From Patescibacteria group bacterium (GTDB taxonomy: Bacteria; Patescibacteriota; Patescibacteriia; UBA9934), in the NCBI GenBank assembly GCA_041660165.1, contig JBAZWW010000003.1:4352-68351 (forward strand): 64,000 nt of DNA, given 5' to 3'. The notes under the pieces were generated by a model. It was not told the DNA's origin. It was given only the letters and a program-made list of their open reading frames with translations, and ran no database searches. The position numbers and the translations under genes are program-made. Below are positions 11,814 through 61,494 of the stretch, piece after piece. Position 1 is the first letter of the stretch, and each line of letters opens with the position of its first letter.

Positions 11814-11933
11814 AGATTTTCTTACGGTCGCATTGGCGCCGTAGCAGTCGAGACGATGCTCGACCAGTGATTTAGTGAGGGGAATATAGCGGAAAAGGGC
11901 AGGTGAGTCAAGAAACCCTGGCCCCAATTCTAC

Positions 11934-11953
11934 CCCTCCTCACGTCGGGGTGG
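11934..11953. repeat. Short GC-rich intergenic repeat CCCCTCCTCACGTCGGGGTGG (type 2)
   Basis: Near-identical copies at 16348-16369 and 33686-33706. Confidence 0.5.
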
Positions 11954-11987
11954 AAAACTGAAACCCGCACATGGAACTGGTAAACAA

Positions 11988-16380: not shown

Positions 16381-16430
16381 ATCGCCTCATCCTGATTACC
16401 AATCAGATCCTTCGCTCCGCTCAGGATGAC
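16381..16430. repeat. Palindromic MITE/REP-like intergenic repeat (type 1, partial left arm)
   Basis: cctCATCCTGAttaccAATCAGATCCTTCGCTCCGCTCAGGATGAC. Same family as 32302-32373, 45224-45253, 45554-45580 and 49459-49492. Confidence 0.6.
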
Positions 16431-30060: not shown

Positions 30061-30456
30061 ATGCTGCACATCAAGTATAAACTTGCCCCCTCAATACATC
30101 ACGGCATCGGTCTTTTTGCCGATCAAAATATACAAAAGAATCAGCTGATTTACTCGGCCAGCCCGTTGCTCGACGTTAATATCTCTCCCGAAGAATTCAG
30201 TAAATTATCGCTCTCGGAACAAGCCGAGATTTCGTATTGGGGTTTTCTCGATAAACAATCTGGCCTTTGGCACGTTGATTTTGATGTTTCAAAATTTATC
30301 AATCACTCTTCAGCGCCAAATATCACGCAAGATCCTATCTCAACAGAAACTCGCCTCATTGCCCTAAAAGACATTTCCGCCGGCGAGGAACTGACGCAAA
30401 ACTATCTTGAATTTGAAACAAAAGAAGATCTGAAGAGAAGAGGGATCAGTACTTAA
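30061..30456 (+). CDS. SET-domain protein (putative protein-lysine methyltransferase)
   Basis: 131 aa. INHSSAPN matches the SET NHSCxPN motif and GEELTQNY matches GEELTxxY; preceded by a GIGLFA-like N-SET segment. Confidence 0.6.
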   Translation: MLHIKYKLAPSIHHGIGLFADQNIQKNQLIYSASPLLDVNISPEEFSKLSLSEQAEISYWGFLDKQSGLWHVDFDVSKFINHSSAPNITQDPISTETRLIALKDISAGEELTQNYLEFETKEDLKRRGIST

Positions 30457-31298
30457 CCTTTTAACTTTTTCTGCTTAGGCGGGAGCTGGCCGATTTTTCG
30501 GCGAACAAGGTCTTTAATGTGCTCTTGGGCTGGCCGGTCTTCAGGCATGGGGGCATTTAATTTTTGGATGGTCTCACGGACGGCCTGTCCAACCTTAAAG
30601 TGCGTGTAGCTAGCGGGATCTTCGCCTGTAATACCATCTCTTATTAGTAATTCGTTGGTCTGAGTGATGCGGAAAAGATTGGCTGCTAACTCAGCCGACC
30701 CGGCAAAATCTAAAATATCACCCTCACTAATTCCTTTCTTCTTGCGAATATCGCTTGCCGTTAGTCCGTAAAGACCAACGTAGCCAAAATTATTGAACTT
30801 CCCGAAATTTTCTACACCGGCATCTTTAGCGGTTCTAAATAACCGATTATTATGCGAAGCCACCTGACGTCTTATCTGCAACCGATTCCCATCGTCATCA
30901 ATCACCTCTAATAGCTCTTGCTTCCTGGTCTGCACAGCAAAATATGTTTGCGCAAAAGCGATCTCGGGCTTTCGAGGATCACCATTTTGAGCAATTAGAT
31001 AACAAGCAAAGCGGGAAAGCTGATAATCAATAATCTTACGCCTCGCCTCTCTCGGCGTGTTTTTGCCAATGATTATCATTTTCGGGTCGACCCGAAAATG
31101 ATCCTCAAGCGACTGACTCGTACTAGCACAAACTGCTTGGGCCCGACGAATAGTCTTATGGAAGTCCTCCCATCTCGAATAATCGAGTAATGACATCAAC
31201 TCCCTGGCCTCCCAATATTCAAAACCCTGCTCATCTACCTTCTTAATTGACTCAAAATCCTTATGTAACGAAACCGGCACAATGGCATTGTTCGGCAT
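30453..31298 (-). CDS. dinD: DNA-damage-inducible protein D family protein
   Basis: EYWEARELMSLLDYSRWEDFHKTIRRAQAVC...DHFRVDPKMIIIG...LSRFACYLIAQNGDPRKPEIAFAQTYFAVQTRKQEL closely follows the E. coli DinD N-terminal domain; 281 aa. Confidence 0.7.
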   Translation of the reverse strand: MPNNAIVPVSLHKDFESIKKVDEQGFEYWEARELMSLLDYSRWEDFHKTIRRAQAVCASTSQSLEDHFRVDPKMIIIGKNTPREARRKIIDYQLSRFACYLIAQNGDPRKPEIAFAQTYFAVQTRKQELLEVIDDDGNRLQIRRQVASHNNRLFRTAKDAGVENFGKFNNFGYVGLYGLTASDIRKKKGISEGDILDFAGSAELAANLFRITQTNELLIRDGITGEDPASYTHFKVGQAVRETIQKLNAPMPEDRPAQEHIKDLVRRKIGQLPPKQKKLKG

Positions 31299-31363: not shown

Positions 31364-32290
31364 CTATTTCTTTTTTTTGTCGTGGAACTCTTTGTACACG
31401 CGCCCCAGCTCTTTATCCGTAATATGGGTATACACCTGCGTCGTCGTAATCGACTCGTGTCCAAGCAATGATTGCACCGCGCGAATATCGGCGCCGTTTC
31501 GCAGTAAGTCTGTAGCGTAAGTATGTCGCAACGTGTGCGGGGTTACGCGTTTAGTGATCCCCGCTTCTCGAGCGTAGCGATCGACGATCCGCTGAACCGA
31601 GCGGGGAGTGAGCGGTTGGGCGCTCGCCGAAGAACGTCGAGCTCGATCATGCCGTACAAAAAGATAAGGCGAGGTGTCCTTGCGATGATCGAGATACGCC
31701 TTAATCGAACGCTTGGCATCGTCCGACAAGTAGACAATGCGATGTTTCTTGCCTTTGCCGAGCACCGTGAACTCATCCCGTTTCAAATTGATATTTTCGA
31801 TCTTCAAAGTCGAAGCCTCGGACACGCGCATACCGGTCGAAAACAAAAGCTCGAGCATGGCCTTGTCGCGATAACCAACAATGGTTGGGTCGTTCAACGG
31901 GCCGGCGCGAAATCTTTCGAACTCGTCGGCTTCGAGAAAACTCACATGCCTGGTGCCTTGTTTCGCGAGTTCGATCTTCTCAGCAGCCATGCTCTTAATA
32001 TCTCTCTTCGCGAGGTACTTCAGGAACGCTCGCAAAGCGATCAGGTGATAATTTTGCGTATTCTTTTTCAAATTCGCTTCCTCTCGCCCCGCAATGTCTC
32101 GGTTCAAATGAAGCCGGTACTTCCGCACCATTTCCTGCGTAATCTCCTGCGGATTGGGATGCTTGGCCCAATCCGAAAACCTGCTCAGATAAAAATGGTA
32201 ATTTTTCACCGTCTTATCCGACCGCCCACGCTCGATCTCCAGGTACTCAAGAAATTCTTTAATGTATTTGGCAAGTATGTTCTTTGGCAT
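31364..32290 (-). CDS. Tyrosine-type site-specific recombinase/integrase (XerC/XerD-like)
   Basis: 308 aa. N-terminal SAM-like core-binding domain. Catalytic motifs GMRVSEASTL (R), HTLRHTYATDLLRNGADIRAVQSLLGHESITTTQVYTH (H-x-x-R...Y). Confidence 0.85.
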   Translation of the reverse strand: MPKNILAKYIKEFLEYLEIERGRSDKTVKNYHFYLSRFSDWAKHPNPQEITQEMVRKYRLHLNRDIAGREEANLKKNTQNYHLIALRAFLKYLAKRDIKSMAAEKIELAKQGTRHVSFLEADEFERFRAGPLNDPTIVGYRDKAMLELLFSTGMRVSEASTLKIENINLKRDEFTVLGKGKKHRIVYLSDDAKRSIKAYLDHRKDTSPYLFVRHDRARRSSASAQPLTPRSVQRIVDRYAREAGITKRVTPHTLRHTYATDLLRNGADIRAVQSLLGHESITTTQVYTHITDKELGRVYKEFHDKKKK

Positions 32291-32301
32291 ATTACGATGT
32301 T

Positions 32302-32373
32302 GTCATCCCGAGCAGAGCGAGGGATCTGAATGGCCAATCAGATCCTTCGTCGCTAAAAGCTCCTCAGGATGAC
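32302..32373. repeat. Complete palindromic MITE/REP-like element (type 1 exemplar) abutting the integrase start
   Basis: GTCATCCCGAGCAGAGCGAGGGATCTGA-atggccaa-TCAGATCCTTCGTCGCTAAAAGCTCCTCAGGATGAC forms a long imperfect hairpin. Confidence 0.65.
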
Positions 32374-32705
32374 ACTGACCGTGTGTCGCACATTGTACAC
32401 CCGCGGTACCGTATAAAGAGTTGACCTCAGCCATTTTCCGGTGTATCCTCCTGCCTCTGCGTCGCCTGACGCGGATCGAGTTCCTTTCGTTCCATGGAGA
32501 GTTCGTGCCCCTGCCTCATGAGGCTCCCAGCCTCCCGCCCGTTGATCCCTTTGGCGAGCAACCGCTCGCGACCTTTGACGAGAGGGAAGACTTTCGCCCG
32601 CGCCTGTCAATCTACAAATTGCCCGGTACAGGCAGGTTGCCCCTTGTCCCAACGTCTCACCCTAGCCCAGCCGTACCGTACGAGCTGGAAAAATCATGGA
32701 GAGCG

Positions 32706-32901
32706 AATGCCGACGGATGAAACGAGTGATGCAGATCACCCATCCTGCCACTACAACGACTACGAAGCAGATGCCCCGGTGGCAGGTAACGGAAACCCCC
32801 GCCCGCCGGAACGCTGTGACACCGTGGTCACACGGCGCGCGGACGGCACGTTCGTTTCCGAAACGAGCATCCTGAATGACGGAAAAACCTTCTGGAGGTA
32901 G
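32706..32901 (+). CDS. Putative small protein (64 aa) in GC-rich intergenic block
   Basis: GGAGAGcgaATG RBS-like context; MPTDETSDADHPSCHYNDYEADAPVAGNGNPRPPERCDTVV.... The stop overlaps the RBS of the next small ORF. Weak evidence. Confidence 0.25.
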
Positions 32902-33136
32902 ACCGATGAGCCGAGACGATCGTTTTATTGATGCATTCACCGTGTTCAATGACCCCGTGGATCCGTGCTTCGTGGTTTACGACCTGGTGGCAACAGGTCA
33001 TATCCCGCCCACGGCGAAACCGCCTGTTATGTCGCCGGCCAACGAACCGCCCAATATCGACGGCGAAAAGTCTGCCACGGCGCCAACCAGCGGATACGGC
33101 CACTTCGGCACCACCCGCGGTGGGAGCCGGCACTAG
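32897..33136 (+). CDS. Putative small protein (79 aa) in GC-rich intergenic block
   Basis: Strong RBS GGAGGTagaccgATG; MSRDDRFIDAFTVFNDPVDPCFVVYDLVATGHIPPTAKPPVM.... No homolog recognised. Confidence 0.3.
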   Translation, partial: GRPMSRDDRFIDAFTVFNDPVDPCFVVYDLVATGHIPPTAKPPVMSPANEPPNIDGEKSATAPTSGYGHFGTTRGGSRH

Positions 33137-33306
33137 CATTGAACGCCTTGAACCCCGCTCTCTTCGTGAGACGCGGGGTTCTGCATTTCTTGACCATTTC
33201 GGCATTCTCGACTATTCTTTCCCTGCATTCATTTATACAGCCGTTTACCACGGTTTTTGGCTAGAGCAAGCCTTTTACTGAGACAATCGGCACAACTCAT
33301 ACTGCT

Positions 33307-33573
33307 ATGCTCGACAAGACAAAGAAAGATAAGGTCATTAAGAAGTTCCGCACCCATGAGTCAGACACCGGCTCACCACAGGTGCAGATCGCCATTCTGA
33401 CGGAGGAAATCAAGGAGCTGACTAAGCACTTGAAGACCCACCGCAAGGATTTCAGCTCACGCCGTGGACTTGTAAAGAAGGTCTCGGAACGCCGCCGCCT
33501 CTTGAAGTACTTGGAGCGCGAGAATGAAAAGGCGTATGCAGAGATCATTGCAGAGCTTGGTTTGAAGAAATAA
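33307..33573 (+). CDS. rpsO: 30S ribosomal protein S15
   Basis: MLDKTKKDKVIKKFRTHESDTGSPQVQIAILTEEIKELTKHLKTHRKDFSSRRGLVKKVSERRRLLKYL is a canonical S15 sequence of 88 aa. Confidence 0.85.
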   Translation: MLDKTKKDKVIKKFRTHESDTGSPQVQIAILTEEIKELTKHLKTHRKDFSSRRGLVKKVSERRRLLKYLERENEKAYAEIIAELGLKK

Positions 33574-33579
33574 AGGAAC

Positions 33580-33616
33580 AGCCGACCTTGCACCTTGGTG
33601 TCCGGTCGGCTTTTTA
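33580..33616 (+). terminator. Rho-independent terminator after rpsO
   Basis: AGCCGACCttgcaccttggtgtccGGTCGGCTTTTTAT. Confidence 0.6.
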
Positions 33617-33685
33617 TCTCACCCCGAGGTAACGAGGGGTAGCATGGAGGTCATTGGTTCAAACAAGTTTCAGTAGCCAATTCTA

Positions 33686-33706
33686 TCCCTCCTCACGTCG
33701 GGATGG
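33686..33706. repeat. GC-rich intergenic repeat (type 2 copy)
   Basis: TCCCTCCTCACGTCGGGATGG. Confidence 0.45.
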
Positions 33707-33756
33707 AGATCAGTCCGGTTGTTCGACAGATATAATTCATTCACTTTTTTCTTGCT

Positions 33757-34425
33757 ATGTTAGACTTTTCGAATCGTCGGGTTGGAGTTTTCATTGACGT
33801 GCAGAACATGTATTACAGTGCCAGGAATATTTACGGAAGCAAGGTGAACTTTGGCAACATTGTGAAGGTGGCAGCGGGGGATCAGAAGCTCATCCGCGCC
33901 GTGGCCTACACCATTTCGACCAAGACGGGGGACGAACTTCCATTCTTTGAGGCTTTGCACAAGTCAGGCATCGAGGTAAACACAAAGGAGCTTCTCGAAT
34001 ACGATTCAGGACACAAAAAAGGGGACTGGGACGTAGGAATTACGGTCGATATCATCCGCATGCTTGATACCGTGGACGTGGTGGTCATCGTGTCCGGCGA
34101 CGGCGACTACATTCCGCTTGGCGAGTACATCAAAAATCGCGGACGCATCTTCCATGTGGTGTCCTTCCGCGAATCAACGTCAAGCAAACTGGTCGAAGCT
34201 GCGGACATTTACACAAACTTATCAGACAACTTGGGCGAGTTCCTAATCCGTGATCCAAAGTACCGGCCAACGCAACAGCGCAAGCCGTCAACTACAGATA
34301 CATTCGATGACGTGATTGCTGAACAGGGCGAGCATGCCTTCAAGCCGATTGGACATGAAGCCGAAACGCCAGACGCAAACGCACCGCGTCGCCGAGGCCG
34401 TCCAGCAAAGAATCCAGCGGCGTAA
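33757..34425 (+). CDS. NYN-domain (LabA/DUF88-like) putative RNase with C-terminal AT-hook-like tail
   Basis: MLDFSNRRVGVFIDVQNMYYSAR...AVAYT...VVVIVSGDGDYIPL matches the NYN/LabA fold. C-terminal RRRGRPAKNPAA; 222 aa. Confidence 0.7.
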   Translation: MLDFSNRRVGVFIDVQNMYYSARNIYGSKVNFGNIVKVAAGDQKLIRAVAYTISTKTGDELPFFEALHKSGIEVNTKELLEYDSGHKKGDWDVGITVDIIRMLDTVDVVVIVSGDGDYIPLGEYIKNRGRIFHVVSFRESTSSKLVEAADIYTNLSDNLGEFLIRDPKYRPTQQRKPSTTDTFDDVIAEQGEHAFKPIGHEAETPDANAPRRRGRPAKNPAA

Positions 34426-34450
34426 ACGATCGAGCAACCGGACGGGTTCC

Positions 34451-34532
34451 CATCCCGAGCAATGCGAGGGATCCGACTTTCCCCTGTGACAGTGGAGAGG
34501 GTCGGGCCCTTCGCTCTCGCTCAGGGTGGGAT
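34451..34532. repeat. Long palindromic intergenic repeat (type 3 copy)
   Basis: CATCCCGAGCAATGCGAGGGATCCGAC...GTCGGGCCCTTCGCTCTCGCTCAGGGTGGGAT. Related to 53121-53200 and 61379-61467. Confidence 0.6.
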
Positions 34533-34593
34533 AAGATGAGCACTTCGTGCACACCGAATAGGAACTAACGTAAAAGGGTAAAATAATAAAACT

Positions 34594-36795
34594 ATGGACT
34601 TGAAATCGTATTCGATTGATTTTGGCGGAAAGAAACTGACGATTGAGACAGGGAAGTTTGCCAAGGCAGCTAATGGAAGCTGTACCGTGCGTTACGGAGA
34701 CACCGTTGTGCTCGCCACGGCCGTGATGAGCAAAGACGTGCGACCAGGACTAAGCTTTTTCCCGCTCATGGTTGATTTTGAAGAAAAGCTTTACGCAGCG
34801 GGCCGGATCAAAGGATCTCGCTTTATCAAGCGCGAAGGACGTCCGACTGATGAGGCAGTCCTCGCCGCTCGTTTTATTGACCGAGCAATCAGACCGCTGT
34901 TCGATCAACGAATTGCTAACGACGTGCAGGTCATCATTTCGGTCATCGCGTTTGATCAAGAAAATGACGCCGACATTCCAGGTTTGATCGCCGCGTCCTG
35001 CGCGCTTCACATGAGCGATATTCCGTGGAACGGCCCAATTGCTGTGGCTCGCATCAACGCTGACGCCGAGGGCAAATTCATTCTGAACGGTACATATGCT
35101 GAACGCGAAATTGCCAAATTTGACGTAGACGTAGCCGGTAATTCAGAAAAAGTCATCATGATTGAAGCCGGTTGTGATGAAGCGCCGGAAGATGAAGTGA
35201 TTGACGCCATTGCCTACGGACGCGAGAGCCTTGGCCCGGTTATCGAGCTGATTGAAAAGGTTCGCTCTGAATGCGGAAAACCAAAAGTCGATCTCATCAC
35301 GCCCAAAACGGACAGTGCAAAACGGATTGCCGAAAAAACGGATGATCTACGCGCTCTCCTTGCCCCATTCACAAGAAAAACGATCCAGGAACTTTTCTTT
35401 GCCGTACCAAAAGCCACAAAATCCGAACGCGCTCTGGCCAAGGATCAAATGAAAAAACTCACCGTCGCCTTCTTAACTGAACAAGGCCAAGATGAAGAGG
35501 GGATTATCATTGGCAAGTCCTTGCTCGGCGAATTACTCGACGCAGAAATCACGCGCACAATTATTGAGGACGGCAAGCGCGTTGACGGACGCGGACTTTA
35601 TGACGTGCGCGAACTTTCAAGCGAAGTGGCGCTCTTCCCGTGCGTGCACGGTTCCGGTTTCTTTAACCGCGGTGAAACACAGGTGCTGTCGATCGTAACG
35701 CTTGGCGCTCCTGGCGATAAGCAGACGCTGGACGGCATGGAATTAGTCGGCGAGAGACGATTCATGCACCACTACAACTTCCCCCCATTCTCTGTGGGCG
35801 AGGCCAAACCATTACGCGGAGCCGGACGCAGAGAAATTGGCCACGGCGCACTGGCAGAAAAAGCCCTCGCTTTCATGATTCCGGACAAGGAAACGTTCCC
35901 CTACACCATTCGCGTGGTATCCGAAGTACTCGGTTCTAATGGATCGAGTTCTATGGGCTCAACCTGCGGTACCTCACTCGCACTTATGGACGCTGGCGTG
36001 CCGATCAAGGCCGCAGTTGCTGGAATCGCCATGGGACTGGCGTCGAACGGCAAGAAATATCAGGTCATTACTGATCTCCAGGATCTCGAAGATGGCGAAG
36101 GCGGAATGGACTTCAAGATTACAGGCACTCGAAAAGGTATTACGGCTATTCAGCTCGACACCAAGACGGACGGCATCCCGCATGACGTTATTGTTGAGGC
36201 CGTTACCCGCTCGCAAACTGCCCGCATGAAAATTCTCGACGTGATGGCAACGGCCATCCCCACGCCTCGAGCCGAGCTTTCACCAAACGCTCCGCGCATC
36301 ATTAACATTCAAATCAATCCAGACAAGATCCGCGAAGTTATTGGTTCGGGCGGAAAGACAATCAATGAGATTATCGAGAAGACGGGTGTTTCAGATATCG
36401 ACATCGAACAAACCGGTCTTGTTATGATCACCTCATCTGACGCGGAATCAGCCCAGAAAGCATATGATTGGATCTACAACCTGACGCGTGATCTCCAGGT
36501 AGGCGAGGTCTTCTACGGTGAAGTGGTCCGCCTCATGGACTTTGGCGCCTTCGTTCAGGTGCTCCCCGGAAAAGATGGCCTGGTCCATGTTTCCGAGATG
36601 GCCCCATGGAGGGTCGAGAAGGTAACAGACGTCGTGAACGTTGGCGATAAGGTTCATGTGAAGGTCATCGAGATAGATGAAAAAGGCCGAGTGAACCTCT
36701 CCATGAAACAGGCCGAAGGAAACGTGTACACTGATGAGATGAAAGCCAAGGCTTCCACGGGATCTTCAAAACCCGCCGGCAAGCGCTACGTGTAA
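34594..36795 (+). CDS. pnp: Polyribonucleotide nucleotidyltransferase (PNPase)
   Basis: 733 aa. Two RNase PH-like domains, KH (IREVIGSGGKTINEI) and S1 (GEVFYGEVVRLMDFGAFVQVLPGKDGLVHVSE) domains. Confidence 0.9.
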   Translation: MDLKSYSIDFGGKKLTIETGKFAKAANGSCTVRYGDTVVLATAVMSKDVRPGLSFFPLMVDFEEKLYAAGRIKGSRFIKREGRPTDEAVLAARFIDRAIRPLFDQRIANDVQVIISVIAFDQENDADIPGLIAASCALHMSDIPWNGPIAVARINADAEGKFILNGTYAEREIAKFDVDVAGNSEKVIMIEAGCDEAPEDEVIDAIAYGRESLGPVIELIEKVRSECGKPKVDLITPKTDSAKRIAEKTDDLRALLAPFTRKTIQELFFAVPKATKSERALAKDQMKKLTVAFLTEQGQDEEGIIIGKSLLGELLDAEITRTIIEDGKRVDGRGLYDVRELSSEVALFPCVHGSGFFNRGETQVLSIVTLGAPGDKQTLDGMELVGERRFMHHYNFPPFSVGEAKPLRGAGRREIGHGALAEKALAFMIPDKETFPYTIRVVSEVLGSNGSSSMGSTCGTSLALMDAGVPIKAAVAGIAMGLASNGKKYQVITDLQDLEDGEGGMDFKITGTRKGITAIQLDTKTDGIPHDVIVEAVTRSQTARMKILDVMATAIPTPRAELSPNAPRIINIQINPDKIREVIGSGGKTINEIIEKTGVSDIDIEQTGLVMITSSDAESAQKAYDWIYNLTRDLQVGEVFYGEVVRLMDFGAFVQVLPGKDGLVHVSEMAPWRVEKVTDVVNVGDKVHVKVIEIDEKGRVNLSMKQAEGNVYTDEMKAKASTGSSKPAGKRYV

Positions 36796-36796
36796 A

Positions 36797-38035
36797 ATGG
36801 AAAAATTGAATATCCCATTACAAGAAAATCCAATCCCCCAAAAATTTTGGGGGATTGTGGCGTTTGTATTACCGAGCATCCTGGTCGCAGTCACCTCGAT
36901 GATCGCTTTTCGAGCTGTCCTTGCCATGGATACGCTCAGTTCGCTTGCCCCAAAGGATACAAACTACGCCGTACGTCTGTTAAAAACACCGATGACCCGC
37001 CAAGCACTCGATGACCGTTTTCACGGCATCCTTGTCTTCAATGACGCGCCGTGGACAATAGACGGAATACTCGATCGATCCCACCGTAATGCCATTTTTT
37101 TCTTTAACGATTCAGGAATTTCGGGCGTTGCTTTTGACGGCAAGCTCGATGAAACCGATAAACAAACTGCTGAGGCCCTGCATTTCACGGTTTCAAAAAC
37201 CGATGCTGGCACCTATATTGGCCGGGAAGCTCCTTTTGATACTCAACTAAGGCCAAGATTCAGCCTGGCCTCTTTTATGCCCTGGGCCAATGGGGAAGTA
37301 AGCGTGTTCACGAATGGCCAGCGTCAATCCGCCGGACTTCGCCTGACTAAGGATTCACTGCGCATCTACGGACTTGGCAGAGGTGCTCGCCTGCGCTCAC
37401 CGCTCGATGACGCGGGCGCCAAGGTAGCAGCGGCCTTCTCAATGACCGCCGGCGAGTTCAAAACGATCCTTTCGCCTGACGTCCCGCTGGTCTACCCGGG
37501 TATCAGAGCCCTGTTCGCGGAGGCTGGCGCCAAGGGACTCTCCTTCGTACTTGGCCAAGATCAAGCCGGCACAGCCTTCTCACTTACTATCCCAGGCGGA
37601 TCGCTGGCGCGCGAGGATTTAGAAAGCGCCACAAGCGAGCTCTTCGCCCTTGATCACCTAAAGACCACCGAGTACGAGGATGTCTACACCAGACTGGACG
37701 AAATAGTGTCATCAAGCACCGAAAAACCAGTTACGACGAGCGAGCCAGGCATCACCATTACAAGTCTCCGCGAAAATGATGGCCGGGTGGTCCGGGCGAC
37801 CCAGACGAATCAGAGCCTTATCATCACCAATAGAGAAACAAAAATCCAAGGAAAATCGCCAACTGTAAAGGAGAAATCAAGCTGTCTGCGTGGGACAAAT
37901 CAGTTTATCCTGCCGGAAGTAGCTGGCGCACTCGCCCCACAACAAATTATCGTTTCACCGAGGACAATTGTGACCATGTTACTAGCCAGTAATGAGATTG
38001 CCTTCGCTGACACCTCAACGAAGGCCTGCTGGTGA
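36797..38035 (+). CDS. Hypothetical membrane-anchored protein co-transcribed with pnp
   Basis: 412 aa. The start codon is 2 nt after the pnp stop. N-terminal TM helix (FWGIVAFVLPSILVAVTSMIAF); no recognised domain. Confidence 0.5.
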   Translation: MEKLNIPLQENPIPQKFWGIVAFVLPSILVAVTSMIAFRAVLAMDTLSSLAPKDTNYAVRLLKTPMTRQALDDRFHGILVFNDAPWTIDGILDRSHRNAIFFFNDSGISGVAFDGKLDETDKQTAEALHFTVSKTDAGTYIGREAPFDTQLRPRFSLASFMPWANGEVSVFTNGQRQSAGLRLTKDSLRIYGLGRGARLRSPLDDAGAKVAAAFSMTAGEFKTILSPDVPLVYPGIRALFAEAGAKGLSFVLGQDQAGTAFSLTIPGGSLAREDLESATSELFALDHLKTTEYEDVYTRLDEIVSSSTEKPVTTSEPGITITSLRENDGRVVRATQTNQSLIITNRETKIQGKSPTVKEKSSCLRGTNQFILPEVAGALAPQQIIVSPRTIVTMLLASNEIAFADTSTKACW

Positions 38036-45225: not shown

Positions 45226-45253
45226 TCAGATCCCTCGCTTTGCTCGGGATGAC
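45224..45253. repeat. MITE/REP-like repeat (type 1 half-copy) immediately after the brnA stop
   Basis: AATCAGATCCCTCGCTTTGCTCGGGATGAC. Confidence 0.55.
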
Positions 45254-45553: not shown

Positions 45554-45580
45554 CAGATCCCTCGCTCTGCTCGGGATAAC
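45554..45580. repeat. MITE/REP-like repeat (type 1 half-copy)
   Basis: CAGATCCCTCGCTCTGCTCGGGATAAC. Confidence 0.5.
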
Positions 45581-45598: not shown

Positions 45599-45838
45599 TC
45601 ACGGCTGATCAATACCGCCGTCAGTCCACGGATGACATCTCAAAACTCTTCCCCCTCCTTTAAAAGCTCCCCTCAGAACCCCGTATTTCAGAATGGCCTG
45701 CCGAGTGTACTCGGAACACGATGGATAGAATGGACAATACCCATACGGATACAAAATTTTCAAAGGACCGTGATCAAAGGACACGGTCTTTTGATAGGCC
45801 AGAATTGGCAAGCAAGCCAGATTTCTTAAGAACGCCTT
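45599..45838 (-). CDS. yidD: Membrane protein insertion efficiency factor YidD
   Basis: ...LAYQKTVSF...GYCPFYPSCSEYTRQAILKYGVLRGAFKGGGRVLRCHPWTDGGID matches YidD. No ATG is available, so the proposed start is a TTG preceded by AGGAA. It overlaps the 3' end of rnpA. Confidence 0.6.
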   Translation of the reverse strand, partial: KAFLRNLACLPILAYQKTVSFDHGPLKILYPYGYCPFYPSCSEYTRQAILKYGVLRGAFKGGGRVLRCHPWTDGGIDQP

Positions 45839-46145
45839 CAAGGCGCTGTTCCTTTGCTGAAAAATCAAGGTCAAGCGCTCCTTTGCCGGCCAAGAGAATA
45901 AGGTCATAGCCTGGAGTAATCCTTGGTAACATTTTTTTCATGATTTCCTGATACTGGCGCCTGACCCAGTTGCGATCAACAGCCCGCTTGCTCACCTTGA
46001 GGCCGGTCACGACGGTTACTCGAACAGTAGTTGTGCCGTTCTTGCTGTACTTCACTCCACACACGGCATCAAACACGCCCTTCTTGGCCTTAAGGACTTT
46101 GGCAATATCCGCGTCTTTCTTCAGGCGTTGGCTCTTCTTTAACAT
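45774..46145 (-). CDS. rnpA: Ribonuclease P protein component
   Basis: MLKKSQRLKKDADIAKVLKAKKGVFDAV...RAVDRNWVRRQYQEI... is a typical RnpA of 123 aa, located directly downstream of rpmH. Confidence 0.75.
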   Translation of the reverse strand: MLKKSQRLKKDADIAKVLKAKKGVFDAVCGVKYSKNGTTTVRVTVVTGLKVSKRAVDRNWVRRQYQEIMKKMLPRITPGYDLILLAGKGALDLDFSAKEQRLEGVLKKSGLLANSGLSKDRVL

Positions 46146-46162
46146 AAAAGAAAACCCCCGTT

Positions 46163-46315
46163 CTAGCGGGGGCGCTCTTTGAGCGTAAGTTTCTTGCGTC
46201 CCTTAGCGCGTCTGCGCTTCAAAACAGCTCGGCCGTCCTTGGTCTTCATCCGCTGGCGGAAGCCGTGCACCTTGGCCCGTCTGACCTTCTTTGGTTGGTA
46301 TGTTCGCTTAGGCAT
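46163..46315 (-). CDS. rpmH: 50S ribosomal protein L34
   Basis: Not in the ORF track (50 aa). Reverse-strand translation [50 protein letters not shown] is a canonical L34. Confidence 0.85.
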
Positions 46316-46383
46316 ATATAAAGTACCGAGAGGATAGGGTAGTTTGGAGAAAACGTCAACTGCTTAAGCAATAATACCCTATT

Positions 46384-46572
46384 TTACACAGATCGCAAAA
46401 ACGACGACAGATTTAACACAGATATGAGGTCCGATCCATGTCCATCTGTGTTTATCTGTGACAGAGGGCGATCTGTGTTCATCGAATGTCGAGTTACCCA
46501 CAGCCTATCCACACTTATCCACAACTTCACAGAAAGCTCAACACTTGCAATAGTTTGTGGGCTGTGGATAGA
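46384..46572. promoter_or_regulatory. oriC-like region upstream of dnaA: DnaA boxes plus ACACAGAT-type repeats
   Basis: CTATCCACA 46505-46513. TTATCCACA 46516-46524. TGTGGATAG 46564-46572. Five (T/A)ACACAGAT / ATCTGTG repeats at 46384-46485. Confidence 0.55.
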
Positions 46573-46616
46573 TTGGCTATGATACTTGATGTCGTTACTC
46601 CTAAACGCAATGCGCT

Positions 46617-48020
46617 ATGGAAATTGGTTCGCCCATGAATACTCACGAACTTTGGCAGGCTGTTCTGGCCCGCCTTGAACTCAAGCTGAGTAAAGCGCAT
46701 TTCAGTACGTGGTTCCGCCAAACCTTTGTTTGCGAATACCGAATAGGGGAGGCCATCATTGCCGTGCCGAACAACATTGCCCAGTCGTGGCTGGAAAAGA
46801 AGTATTACAAAGACATCCTTGAAGCACTCCAGGCCGTGACGGACCAGCCGATCCGTAAACTAACGGTTCGCATTGAAACAAAGCCCCTTCCGCCACAACC
46901 CATTCAGCTCACCGCGCAGAAGCCCGCCCCCGCTGATGACTACGGTTTCCTGCCAACCAATGGCGCAGAGCCAATGCAGGCGCCAACGGGCAACATTTCC
47001 GTTAATCCCATCTACACCTTTCAAACATTCGTCGTCGGCAAACAGAACGAACTCGCCCACGCCGCGTCACAGGCCGTCTCCTCTCAACCCGGCGGAACGT
47101 ATAACCCGCTCTTCATTTATGGAGGCGTCGGACTCGGCAAAACCCACCTACTGCATGCCATAGCCAACGAAATCCGCAGAAAGTGGCAAAACGCCCGTAT
47201 CATGTATGTAACGTGCGAGCATTTCACGAACGACTTCATTCACTCTATCCGCTCTGGTAAGGGCAAGGAATTCAAGGATCGCTACCGCAATGTTGATCTC
47301 CTGCTGATCGACGACATTCAGTTTATTACCGGCAAAGAGGGGACTCAGGAAGAGTTCTTCCATACCTTTAACACGCTCCACCAGGACAACAAGCAGATCG
47401 TCATCTCATCAGACCGTCCACCGAAATCGATCGCCGGCCTTGAAAAACGCCTGCAGTCCCGGCTCGAATGGGGCATGCTCGTAGACGTTGGCACGCCGGA
47501 TCTCGAAACCAGGATCGCCATTCTCGAAAAGAAGTGTCTCGAGAAAGGCTTTCCTCTAAATAAGGAGATCCTGCAGTACGTTGCCTCAACTGTTTCATCG
47601 AACGTTCGCGAACTTGAAGGCGCTTTGAACAAAATCATCGCCGTTCACCAGTTCCGCAACATGGAAGCAACCCTAGACACCATCAAACCGATTATTTCCA
47701 CGTTTGAGTCCGAAAACATCAAGAAAACTGTGACACCCAAGCAGGTCATCATGATCGTGGCGGCCTATTTCGACATTCAGATTGAGGACGTACTTGGCAA
47801 GTCTCGTGAAAAACGCCTAGCCTTCCCCCGACAGATCATCATGTTCTTACTTCGCGAGGAAATGAAGTCCTCGTACCCCACCATTGGCACAGAACTTGGC
47901 GGTAGAGATCACACCACTGCCATGCACGCACACTCAAAGATCATGAATATGCTTGATTCTGATGATAAACTTCAGAAAGACCTCGAGCTTATCAAGCAAC
48001 GCCTGTACACCGGTGTATAA
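46617..48020 (+). CDS. dnaA: Chromosomal replication initiator protein DnaA
   Basis: 467 aa. ELWQAVLARLELKLSKAHFSTWF (domain I). Walker A GGVGLGKTHLL. Walker B LLLIDDIQF. Sensor/box VII. C-terminal DNA-binding helix (HTTAMHAHSKI). The start may be the internal Met at 46635. Confidence 0.9.
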   Translation: MEIGSPMNTHELWQAVLARLELKLSKAHFSTWFRQTFVCEYRIGEAIIAVPNNIAQSWLEKKYYKDILEALQAVTDQPIRKLTVRIETKPLPPQPIQLTAQKPAPADDYGFLPTNGAEPMQAPTGNISVNPIYTFQTFVVGKQNELAHAASQAVSSQPGGTYNPLFIYGGVGLGKTHLLHAIANEIRRKWQNARIMYVTCEHFTNDFIHSIRSGKGKEFKDRYRNVDLLLIDDIQFITGKEGTQEEFFHTFNTLHQDNKQIVISSDRPPKSIAGLEKRLQSRLEWGMLVDVGTPDLETRIAILEKKCLEKGFPLNKEILQYVASTVSSNVRELEGALNKIIAVHQFRNMEATLDTIKPIISTFESENIKKTVTPKQVIMIVAAYFDIQIEDVLGKSREKRLAFPRQIIMFLLREEMKSSYPTIGTELGGRDHTTAMHAHSKIMNMLDSDDKLQKDLELIKQRLYTGV

Positions 48021-48063
48021 AAGGGGGACAACCTGTGAACTGAGGAAAACTTGTGTACAACCC

Positions 48064-48295
48064 CGTGGATAAGGGGAGGGATAACCAGTAGGATAACGCG
48101 GTGCATAAATGGGGGATAGATCGAGGAGCTTCAAACCTCGCTGACTTGCCCACCATCCGTCCAGTGCTCCGCGCAGGTTTTCTACACAACCGATAATCTC
48201 AAATAGGCCGATAGATAAAAGGCTTGCCGAGTTATCCGCCTTATCCACAGACTCTCTATTGTTACTGGTTCTTATATATAAATAATTCAGAAGCA
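48064..48295. promoter_or_regulatory. oriC between dnaA and dnaN: DnaA boxes and AT-rich DUE
   Basis: CGTGGATAA 48064-48072. GGGATAACC and AGGATAACG. TTATCCGCC 48232-48240. TTATCCACA 48241-48249. AT-rich cttatatataaataattcag 48271-48292. Confidence 0.55.
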
Positions 48296-48299
48296 ATCT

Positions 48300-49433
48300 G
48301 TGAAACTCTCCTGCACCCGTGAAAATTTACACCAAGGACTTTCCATTGTGAGTCATATAAGTGGAAAATCAGTGAACCTGCCCATTTTGAACAATGTCCT
48401 CTTTAGGGCGGATATCAGTGGACTCAAGCTAACGGCAACTAACCTGGACATGACCGTCACTTGCTCGGTCAGAAGCAAGGTAGACCAGCCCGGCGAGTAC
48501 ACCGTTCCCGCTAAGCTCATTGCCGATTACGTTTCGTTACTGCCGGACGAACGGGTTGATCTTGATCTTCTTGATACTTCGCTTTCTGTCGTCTGTGGAT
48601 CCTCGAAAACGAAAATCAACGGTTTGGCTCCAAGCGAGTTCCCACTCGTTCCTCAAGTTACAGGCGGAGTGAAATTCATCGTGCCCGTAGCCCCGTTTGA
48701 TAGCGCCCTCGGTCAGACGCTCTTCTCGGTTTCAACAAGCGAGGCCCGGCAGGTACTTACCGGTGCGTATCTTGAGTTCAACGGCGACAAGAAAATGCTC
48801 ACCATTGCGGCGACAGACTCGTACAGGCTGGGCGAGCGTCAGATTGCGCTTACGGGCGACATCATGGGCGAGCGCAAGGTTGTGGTCCCCTCAAGGACGC
48901 TGGCCGAACTGCGCCGGATTATTGGCGTTCTGCGCGACGCGGTCGAGATTCCCGAAACGCTCGAAATAGAAATTACCGATAACCAAGTTGCTTTCCGCTA
49001 CGGAAGCGTTGAGCTATCGAGCAGAACAATCGACGGCGTTTATCCCGATTATCGACAGATTATCCCCAAGACGAGCATGACAGAGATCATCGTTAATAAA
49101 ACGCTGTTCTCTCAGGCTGTACGGCGTGCGAGTCTCTTCTCGAAGGCCGGCCTGTTCGATGTAAAGCTCGAAGTGAAGGCCGGGACGAACGAAGTTGTCC
49201 TCTCGGCTACGGACGCTGGCAGAGGTGAGCACACAGTGGCAGTCGAGGGCGAGGTGACGGGCACAGACAACGCCGTCACGCTCAACTATCGCTATCTCTT
49301 GGACGGTATTAGCGCCATGAACTCGGATAAAGTAATCGTGAAGTTCATAGACGCTACAAACCCCTGCCTAGTTGTCCCGAACGAAAAGCCAGACGAGAAA
49401 TATCTGTACATTGTGATGCCGATTCGGCAATAG
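48300..49433 (+). CDS. dnaN: DNA polymerase III subunit beta (sliding clamp)
   Basis: 377 aa. MKLSCTRENLHQGLSIVSHISGKSVNLPILNNVLFRA... shows the three-domain beta-clamp pattern and follows dnaA directly. Confidence 0.9.
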   Translation: MKLSCTRENLHQGLSIVSHISGKSVNLPILNNVLFRADISGLKLTATNLDMTVTCSVRSKVDQPGEYTVPAKLIADYVSLLPDERVDLDLLDTSLSVVCGSSKTKINGLAPSEFPLVPQVTGGVKFIVPVAPFDSALGQTLFSVSTSEARQVLTGAYLEFNGDKKMLTIAATDSYRLGERQIALTGDIMGERKVVVPSRTLAELRRIIGVLRDAVEIPETLEIEITDNQVAFRYGSVELSSRTIDGVYPDYRQIIPKTSMTEIIVNKTLFSQAVRRASLFSKAGLFDVKLEVKAGTNEVVLSATDAGRGEHTVAVEGEVTGTDNAVTLNYRYLLDGISAMNSDKVIVKFIDATNPCLVVPNEKPDEKYLYIVMPIRQ

Positions 49434-49458: not shown

Positions 49459-49492
49459 GGCCAATCAGATCCCTCGCTCCGCTCGGGATGAC
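49459..49492. repeat. MITE/REP-like repeat (type 1 half-copy) after dnaN
   Basis: GGCCAATCAGATCCCTCGCTCCGCTCGGGATGAC. Confidence 0.55.
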
Positions 49493-53120: not shown

Positions 53121-53200
53121 CGGTTCTCCATCCTGAGCGAGAGCGAAGGATCCGACCCTCACCGGTGAAAGTCGGACCCTTCGCATAGCTCAGGGTGGGA
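53121..53200. repeat. Long palindromic intergenic repeat (type 3)
   Basis: GGTTCTCCATCCTGAGCGAGAGCGAAGGATCCGACcctcaccggtgaaaGTCGGACCCTTCGCATAGCTCAGGGTGGGAT forms a near-perfect hairpin of about 80 bp. Confidence 0.65.
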
Positions 53201-53215
53201 TCCCAACCAATCAAT

Positions 53216-61378: not shown

Positions 61379-61467
61379 GGTTCTCCATCCTGAGCCATGC
61401 GAAGGATCCGACTTTCCCTGCGAGACGCCGGGAGGGGCGGACCCTTCGCTCTCGCTCAGGGTGGGAT
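61379..61467. repeat. Long palindromic intergenic repeat (type 3)
   Basis: GGTTCTCCATCCTGAGCCATGCGAAGGATCCGAC...GGACCCTTCGCTCTCGCTCAGGGTGGGAT. Confidence 0.65.
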
Positions 61468-61494
61468 AGGGGGCATTGGCATAGATACATACAC

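Follow-up and report, generated by a model that had tools for sequence, protein, structure and literature searches.

The 64,000-nt stretch of DNA analysed here, referred to as the window, comes from a Patescibacteria group bacterium (assembly GCA_041660165.1, contig JBAZWW010000003.1) and carries an open reading frame (ORF) for a 222-aa LabA-like NYN-domain protein between rpsO, the gene of ribosomal protein S15, and pnp, the gene of polynucleotide phosphorylase (PNPase). Comparison with related genomes showed the NYN gene to be a long-established housekeeping component of the rpsO(-pnp) operon in the Parcubacteria group, kept under strong constraint. We assign a probability of about 50% to the reading that its product is an endoribonuclease of RNA processing or decay, working in the same pathway as PNPase and expressed at a low level coupled to that of S15. 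The rpsO-pnp operon is a classical model of bacterial mRNA decay and autoregulation, and its architecture is not universal: in the Parcubacteria group its spacer has long held a protein-coding gene. The NYN family itself is already known; its fixed place in the rpsO-pnp operon was not found reported, and literature searches turned up no connection of NYN proteins to rpsO/pnp or to RNA decay in Patescibacteria. A predicted nuclease gene fixed in this operon is the strongest contextual clue so far to the LabA-type NYN family.

Gene order in the window and in related genomes

The gene order rpsO, NYN ORF, pnp and its coordinates, as given in the original prediction, were exact, with all three genes on the + strand:

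33307-33573 (+), rpsO, ribosomal protein S15, 88 aa, first cistron (Pfam Ribosomal_S15, E 2.8e-33)
33757-34425 (+), NYN/LabA-like ORF, 222 aa, ATG start, stop codon included (Pfam PF01936, E 6.6e-30)
34594-36795 (+), pnp, polynucleotide phosphorylase, 733 aa (Pfam RNase_PH twice, RNase_PH_C, KH_1 and S1, the PNPase architecture)

The spacers measure 183 nt (rpsO-NYN) and 168 nt (NYN-pnp). The window is a chromosomal core region, and the genomes nearest to it are labelled Candidatus Uhrbacteria, which NCBI places in the Parcubacteria group of Patescibacteria.

Two sets of loci were compared with the window. For an Uhrbacteria-like set, one genome per species was scanned, a relative was present in 454, and the best 80 loci were kept (49-94% NYN identity); here rpsO was counted when it lay at most 700 bp upstream on the same strand, and only loci with enough sequence were testable. 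A Paceibacteria-type set of 80 metagenome loci was obtained from a profile of distant relatives (44-58% identity to the window protein), its protein relatives being labelled Nomurabacteria, Taylorbacteria, Pacebacteria or Paceibacterota.

An absence of conservation next to pnp, which the original prediction had named as the outcome speaking against it, was not observed: in the Uhrbacteria-like set rpsO stood upstream of NYN in 72/72 testable loci and pnp directly downstream in 68/68. In the Paceibacteria-type set, rpsO preceded NYN in 60 of 65 loci, and of the 39 loci scored for pnp, 21 had it adjacent, 8 had it at a distance of 1.2-3.8 kb and 10 had none within 4 kb. In seven of these ten pnp-less loci, the genes that normally come after pnp followed NYN directly (ComM in 7/7, a DksA-like gene in 4; metagenome loci L088, L093, L095, L098, L107, L108 and L156). 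There, pnp was lost or relocated from surroundings that are otherwise intact, and NYN remained behind rpsO. Since NYN is kept where an adjacent pnp is absent, it does not strictly depend on one, and the tightest linkage is that of rpsO with NYN, not that of NYN with pnp. This qualifies the functional link to PNPase that had been proposed from the position of the gene: the association with the operon is long-standing, but the tighter partner is rpsO.

Individual loci extended this picture. A Nomurabacteria locus reads xth(-), xerC(-), rpsO, NYN, pnp, followed by a 281-aa ORF and a DksA-like gene, in the same order as in the window and with an rpsO-NYN spacer of 8 bp. The order rpsO-NYN-pnp was also found in a Magasanikbacteria-related locus, and xerC(-), rpsO, NYN in a relative at 37% identity. 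The arrangement dates back to an ancestor of a large part of the Parcubacteria group and is no local event, so that the NYN gene cannot be described as inserted between rpsO and pnp.

The same distribution would also fit a nuclease tied to the ribosome or to S15, acting in the maturation of 16S/23S precursors or in ribosome-associated cleavage of the Rae1/YacP kind, with pnp as a mere ancestral neighbour; we consider this somewhat unlikely. In its favour are the tightness of the rpsO-NYN link in both sets, the loci in which NYN remained behind rpsO with pnp displaced or absent and the DksA-like/ComM homologues kept, one Magasanikbacteria genome (L173/L174) with rpsO-NYN and no pnp following, and rpsO-NYN spacers of 7-22 nt in several lineages. 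Lys/Arg-rich disordered tails are typical of rRNA-binding proteins, and the window protein has a basic, disordered tail. Earlier neighbourhood work has also implicated bacterial NYN domains in tRNA/rRNA processing (PMC5499597). The adjacency of pnp in every testable Uhrbacteria-like locus argues against a ribosomal role that leaves pnp a bystander, as do the transcription signals described below.

A 2017 survey of the PIN superfamily gave SpoU, RNase T and Udg4 as neighbourhoods of the LabA group, and rpsO-pnp was not among them (PMC5499597). The nearest NYN relatives outside the rpsO context (L161-L164; P0138, P0140, P0170, P0151) have long Lys-rich tails; they include one that is labelled Nanoarchaeota (DPANN) and two that adjoin an HhH-GPD glycosylase gene. 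Another NYN subfamily (L175; P0195, P0181) forms the last gene of a suf Fe-S cluster operon.

Domain, fold and selection

Three parts of the NYN protein were distinguished:

33778-34218 (+), NYN (PIN-like) nuclease domain, residues 8-154 (Pfam envelope)
34252-34422 (+), disordered, fast-evolving C-terminal tail, residues 166-222 (predicted local distance difference test, pLDDT; nonsynonymous divergence, pN)
34387-34410 (+), AT-hook-like motif RRRGRPAK, residues 211-218 (read from the sequence)

The PF01936 match scored 105 bits against a gathering score of 24.2 and covered model positions 1-143 of 145. Among 2842 database homologues of the ORF, one was identical and is recorded as 'NYN domain-containing protein [Patescibacteria group bacterium]' (P0001). 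The family is large: a library of 50%-identity clusters contained 3,293 LabA-type NYN clusters at E <= 0.001, and the 2017 survey counted ~8,750 LabA-type sequences, with the function listed as unknown (PMC5499597).

The core motifs are intact, as had been noted from the sequence: FIDVQNMYY holds D14 and N17, and VSGDGDY holds D115 and D117. In the alignment, D14, N17, D90, D92, D98, D115 and D117 were invariant across 36 orthologues, and the equivalents of these acidic and Asn columns were invariant in 24 more distant relatives (40-50% identity). The AlphaFold model consisted of alternating strands and helices in a PIN-like alpha/beta fold. Most of residues 11-160 had block means of 86-98 in pLDDT, with dips to ~80 at residues 51-60 and ~64 at residues 81-90, and 115 residues had values >90. 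The best Foldseek matches in the Protein Data Bank (PDB) were 2qip (E 3e-16) and then the MARF1 NYN domain (E 4.5e-7); phmmer against the PDB also retrieved 2qip (E 6.9e-25), with the motifs KGDWDVGIT and VSGDGD common to both proteins. Because domain family, predicted fold and active-site residues are all kept, the protein is most likely an active metal-dependent endoribonuclease.

Divergence was compared among the three genes against four relatives, with synonymous sites saturated. The pN was 0.05-0.12 for the NYN domain, 0.10-0.18 for pnp and 0.07-0.11 for rpsO. The divergence of the NYN domain is thus no higher than that of PNPase or S15, in keeping with strong purifying selection on the domain.

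The C-terminal tail

Disorder was predicted after about residue 170, with pLDDT <50 at residues 173-181 and 188-220. Against the same four relatives, the pN of the tail (0.26-0.36) corresponded to a roughly five times faster divergence than that of the domain. Orthologues range from 164 to 304 aa in length and their tails are unrelated. Tail length as a correlate of pnp adjacency was rejected, since the median lengths were 187 aa (pnp adjacent) and 174 aa (absent) with overlapping ranges, and tail-less forms occur beside pnp too.

In the window protein the tail ends in ...PRRRGRPAKNPAA, with RGRP at residues 213-216 and basic residues flanking this core. RGRP(R/A/K)K occurs at the same C-terminal position in many close orthologues. 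The AT-hook-like motif reported in the original prediction is therefore present, but it is a feature of one subclade and not of the family; the AT_hook profile gave no Pfam match in the window protein at E <= 0.01. Other subclades end in RRLSF, SPNERALN, IIRGGKKIPV, VVGTDTDxL, DPAIKMSGE, EIGKITGVE or Lys-rich runs, or are tail-less, and an AT-hook as the hallmark of the family was ruled out because most subclades do not have it. The fuller form of two of these motifs is E-x-R-[ST]-R-R-L-[ST]-F and LSPNERALN (orthologues in L001-L160). Such subclade-specific ends resemble short linear docking motifs.

AT-hooks bind the minor groove of AT-rich DNA, and the resemblance of RGRP to them bears on the idea that the protein is a non-catalytic nucleic-acid binder or regulator, either LabA-like or binding DNA through this motif. 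LabA is known only from regulatory phenotypes (PMC5499597), in line with that idea. We regard it as improbable: if the protein were not catalytic, it would be difficult to account for the invariance of every acidic residue predicted to bind the metal, RGRP is confined to one subclade, and many orthologues are tail-less.

The rpsO-NYN spacer and transcription

Two hairpins lie between rpsO and the NYN gene in the window:

33580-33616 (+), terminator-like hairpin and T-run directly after rpsO (fold, T-run)
~33616-33710 (+), second long imperfect hairpin, a genome-specific insertion (fold)

The first hairpin (33580-33611, -17.3 kcal/mol) is followed by TTTTT and is probably a partial terminator or attenuator. 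A hairpin with a T-run after rpsO was present in 50 of 79 related loci, compared with 3.0 expected from shuffles, the T-run lying ~38 nt past the rpsO stop; the Paceibacteria-type set showed the same trend more weakly. In 27 of the 50 hairpin loci the NYN ATG is at most 35 nt beyond the T-run, and in 16 it is at most 20 nt beyond. This leaves no room for a standard promoter, indicating that NYN is transcribed by read-through from rpsO.

Between NYN and pnp, a terminator-like site was found in only 15 of 77 loci. Spacers of at most 25 nt occurred in 12 loci for NYN-pnp and in 5 for rpsO-NYN. A purely ribosomal role for the NYN protein fits less well with this layout, in which a terminator-like hairpin splits rpsO from NYN in most loci and NYN from pnp in few.

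The second hairpin holds a 31-nt repeat (33677-33707), which recurs at 11924-11954 with 94% identity. The closest relatives L001, L002 and L067 do not have this hairpin, and their rpsO-NYN spacers are 62-74 nt long; in the closest of all, L001 (85% NYN identity), the spacers are 66 nt (rpsO-NYN) and 55 nt (NYN-pnp).

The NYN-pnp spacer and the candidate pnp leader of relatives

In the window, the NYN-pnp spacer contains a dispersed repeat:

34448-34531 (+), long hairpin of ~84 nt from a dispersed repeat resembling repetitive extragenic palindromes or miniature inverted-repeat transposable elements (fold)
16407-16428, 32304-32325, 34451-34472, 45230-45251, 45557-45578, 49469-49490, 53176-53197 and 61386-61407, copies of the repeat core (core match)
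34448-34531, 61385-61468 and 53132-53201, long copies of the repeat

The stretch 34426-34600 (175 nt) had a minimum free energy of -62.9 kcal/mol (z -2.9). The repeat core CATCCYGAGCnnnGCGARGGAT occurred in 8 copies in the window and in none of 100 shuffles; among 174 related loci it matched once, likewise in the NYN-pnp spacer (L075). The original description of a terminator, repeats and a long hairpin in the two spacers was accurate, but everything in it apart from the rpsO hairpin consists of genome-specific palindromic repeats and does not represent conserved regulatory elements.

Most relatives carry a different, conserved structure at this place. Their NYN-pnp spacers were unusually structured (median z -6.3; z < -3 in 59/61), and when the ~92 nt preceding pnp were aligned for 43 loci, the alignment, from which the covariance model R1 was built, revealed a two-helix hairpin of 16 pairs with compensatory changes at every pair. 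It is ~60-70 nt long and lies 10-25 nt upstream of the pnp start, with an internal loop (GACA on the 5' side) and an inner stem GAGAUC...GRUCUU. Paired cells amounted to 89.8%, compared with 68.2% in shuffles (0/500 reached the observed value) and 32-51% with partners slid, and 145 cells had changed on both sides where 43 were expected. Among the 80 Uhrbacteria-like loci, R1 had a + strand match between NYN and pnp in 51, eight of them outside the seed, and it also matched several loci of other sets; the rest of those loci gave nothing but weak echoes of these hairpins on the reverse strand. The conserved hairpin had no match in Rfam. Examples are:

L015:3158-3252 (+), pnp leader hairpin
L016:3479-3575 (+), pnp leader hairpin
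L007:1537-1628 (+), pnp leader hairpin
L034:2608-2696 (+), pnp leader hairpin
L155:1009-1089 (+), pnp leader hairpin

The position of this hairpin parallels that of the RNase III-processed pnp leader of Escherichia coli, and it is a candidate pnp leader or autoregulatory element. In the window, R1 with filters off gave at best 4 bits (E 4.5), and the leader is also absent from L001 and L002. The repeat at 34448-34531 was rejected as a conserved pnp leader, being a member of a genome-specific repeat family with no R1 match.

The covarying hairpin directly upstream of pnp in most relatives bears on a further explanation, in which the NYN protein is a dedicated regulator of its own operon that cuts the rpsO-NYN-pnp transcript, for example in the pnp leader, in place of E. 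coli RNase III. The gene also sits where E. coli has the pnp leader, in an operon with multi-level post-transcriptional control (PMC5029454). We judge this unlikely. The window, L001 and L002 keep NYN without the leader hairpin, lineages without an adjacent pnp keep NYN as well, RNase III is present in at least one Patescibacterium, and a domain conserved at the level of PNPase over a huge clade suggests a broader role. Nothing in the analysis shows the autoregulation that the original prediction had offered as one possibility.

A conserved linear stretch, ATCACT(C/T)ATTCATAAC, was also seen between a first hairpin just past the NYN stop and the leader hairpin:

L015:3129-3165, linear stretch in the NYN-pnp spacer
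L020:5799-5850, linear stretch in the NYN-pnp spacer
L025:5640-5700, linear stretch in the NYN-pnp spacer

Joined to the first hairpin's 3' arm, the stretch gives TCGAyn-16 nt-CATAAY, a possible pnp promoter judging by its sequence. In L001, a similar AATCACTTTTCATTAC is found shortly before the NYN gene.

Proposed function

For the NYN protein we infer that it is a nuclease, that its substrate is RNA, that it cooperates with PNPase and that its tail has a role, and we propose the following course of events. Transcription would start at the rpsO promoter, and the hairpin and T-run after rpsO would stop most transcripts. The fraction that reads through would carry NYN and usually pnp, so that NYN would be made at a low level coupled to S15. 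The enzyme would then cut internally in single-stranded RNA, either mRNA or rRNA/tRNA precursors, creating 3' ends open to the co-encoded 3'-5' exonuclease PNPase. The basic disordered tail, with its RGRP end in this lineage, may add lineage-specific binding of RNA or of a partner.

A more specific version is advanced only tentatively: NYN and PNPase could form a Parcubacteria-specific two-enzyme module of decay or processing, co-expressed with S15, in which the motifs at the tail ends serve as docking or targeting peptides. If so, the widespread LabA/COG1432 NYN family would have its first assigned cellular function, and ultra-small bacteria would have a minimal degradosome of a new kind.

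Several observations weigh against a shared pathway with PNPase. The syntenic slot lacks pnp in the 10 of 39 Paceibacteria-type loci noted above, with NYN retained, and pnp likewise does not follow in the Magasanikbacteria genome. Most relatives' pnp keeps a structured leader of its own and may have its own promoter, its expression then being partly independent of NYN. The tail is not conserved, and tail-less forms (164-173 aa) also adjoin pnp. In the Saccharibacterium Southlakia epibionticum, the only Patescibacterium amenable to genetics for which data exist, rpsO, an NYN protein gene and pnp are unlinked, and the NYN protein was non-essential in transposon sequencing, with the proviso for both points that it may not be an orthologue of the window protein; its gene is listed among core families and marked 'Patescibacteria enriched'. 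The same organism has RNases Y, J and III and no obvious missing endonuclease, which also weakened the candidate role of filling a gap in the endonuclease set. Finally, the 2017 review states that LabA-type (COG1432) NYN proteins had until then not been investigated as nucleases (PMC5499597).

Lineages in which pnp has gone from its slot offer a natural comparative test of the mutual dependence of the two enzymes. Replacement of RNase P by a protein-only (PRORP-type) enzyme was also considered for the NYN protein and rejected: it has no pentatricopeptide-repeat (PPR) or zinc-binding modules, and the presence in the window of rnpA, which encodes the protein subunit of RNA-based RNase P (45774-46145 (-), Pfam E 1.3e-18), makes such a replacement unlikely.

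Surroundings of the operon

Upstream of rpsO lies a tyrosine recombinase gene (31364-32290 (-)), which is syntenic in relatives at 59-92% identity and also present in the Nomurabacteria locus. Downstream of pnp follow a 412-aa protein, a DksA/TraR-type zinc-finger protein and a ComM-like ATPase. The 412-aa ORF (36797-38035 (+)) begins 2 nt past the pnp stop and has no Pfam or PADLOC match; ORFs weakly similar to it (20-43% identity) follow pnp in many relatives.

The recombinase and its neighbours bear on whether the NYN gene could be a mobile, toxin or defence gene of recent arrival between rpsO and pnp, beside an integrase. Next to the recombinase is a BRO-N domain protein (30453-31298 (-)) with a full-length match to the PADLOC phage-defence candidate PDC-S13 (E 1.8e-95), repeats flank the NYN gene, and the PADLOC LabA-like NYN model matches its product partially (E 5.5e-12). 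That model match (PDLC01154) covers 93 of 310 positions (203-295), however, and the recombinase behaves as a conserved chromosomal gene. With the NYN position the same in all 148 testable loci and strong purifying selection on the protein, a mobile or defence origin is extremely improbable and was regarded as effectively refuted. A 131-aa SET-domain protein (30061-30456 (+)) adjoins the BRO-N gene, just beyond the conserved recombinase gene.

The spacer between recombinase and rpsO (32291-33200, ~0.9 kb) has a G+C content of 58-60%, compared with ~50% nearby, and contains overlapping ORFs only. No Pfam match among these ORFs and no Rfam match was obtained, and nucleotide or translated similarity in relatives was confined to the last ~100 nt before rpsO. 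Relatives' spacers at this position are ~0.2 to 1.6 kb long. An Rfam search of 32200-34700 returned nothing at E <= 1. Further downstream, rnpA (-), dnaA (+) and dnaN (+) are clustered at 45774-49433; the replication origin region is therefore probably included in the window, at ~12 kb from the rpsO-NYN-pnp unit.

Comparison with known systems

In E. coli, rpsO is followed by the terminator t1 and an RNase III-processed pnp leader, and PNPase controls its own synthesis. The Parcubacteria operon is similar in that rpsO is followed by a terminator-like hairpin, pnp lies downstream on the same strand, and most relatives have a hairpin before pnp. The E. coli spacer holds only regulatory RNA and the antisense small RNA SraG (PMC5029454), whereas in the window a predicted nuclease gene occupies the spacer and the conserved leader hairpin is absent.

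The RNase E-PNPase degradosome and the RNase Y/J machines likewise pair an endonuclease with PNPase and have a long disordered tail with lineage-specific motifs. The window protein differs from them in having no homology to RNase E, Y or J, and its pairing with PNPase is a proposed one.

Rae1/YacP of Bacillus subtilis is a ribosome-associated NYN-type endoribonuclease encoded among translation genes. Both it and the window protein are small bacterial NYN-like nucleases, known or predicted, in a translation-related neighbourhood, and Rae1 would be a possible functional analogue if the NYN protein acted at the ribosome. The two belong to different families, which argues against such a role: Rae1/YacP is assigned to NYN_YacP (PF05991), while the window protein matches only PF01936 at E <= 0.01, and the GYN motif that defines the Rae1/YacP family (PMC5499597) is replaced by VQN, the window protein reading D14-V-Q-N17.

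The closest structural counterpart was VPA0982 of Vibrio parahaemolyticus (PDB 2qip), which represents the LabA-like group NYN.COG1432 among solved structures. It shares Pfam family and fold with the window protein (34% identity over 165 columns; template modelling score 0.89, target-normalised, Foldseek), and both carry the motifs DVQN, KGDWDVGIT and VSGDGD. VPA0982 is a bare 165-aa domain, a structural-genomics product of unknown function with no rpsO/pnp context reported, whereas the window protein has an additional 57-aa disordered basic tail. LabA and LalA of Synechococcus elongatus, circadian output regulators, are by description members of the same COG1432 group (PMC5499597). LabA differs in being known only by its genetic effects on KaiC feedback, with no biochemical activity or ribosomal/PNPase linkage described.

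The NYN domain of MARF1 (PDB 6fdl, 5yaa), a eukaryotic mRNA-decay endonuclease, has the same fold as the window protein. It differs in its 14% identity, its membership of the eukaryote-specific subgroup NYN.1, its RRM and LOTUS domains and its recruitment via decapping factors. The MARF1 domain is a Mn/Mg-dependent endonuclease of single-stranded RNA that is inactivated by the Asp426/427 double mutation (PMC6294520), and by analogy the window protein most plausibly works in the same way.

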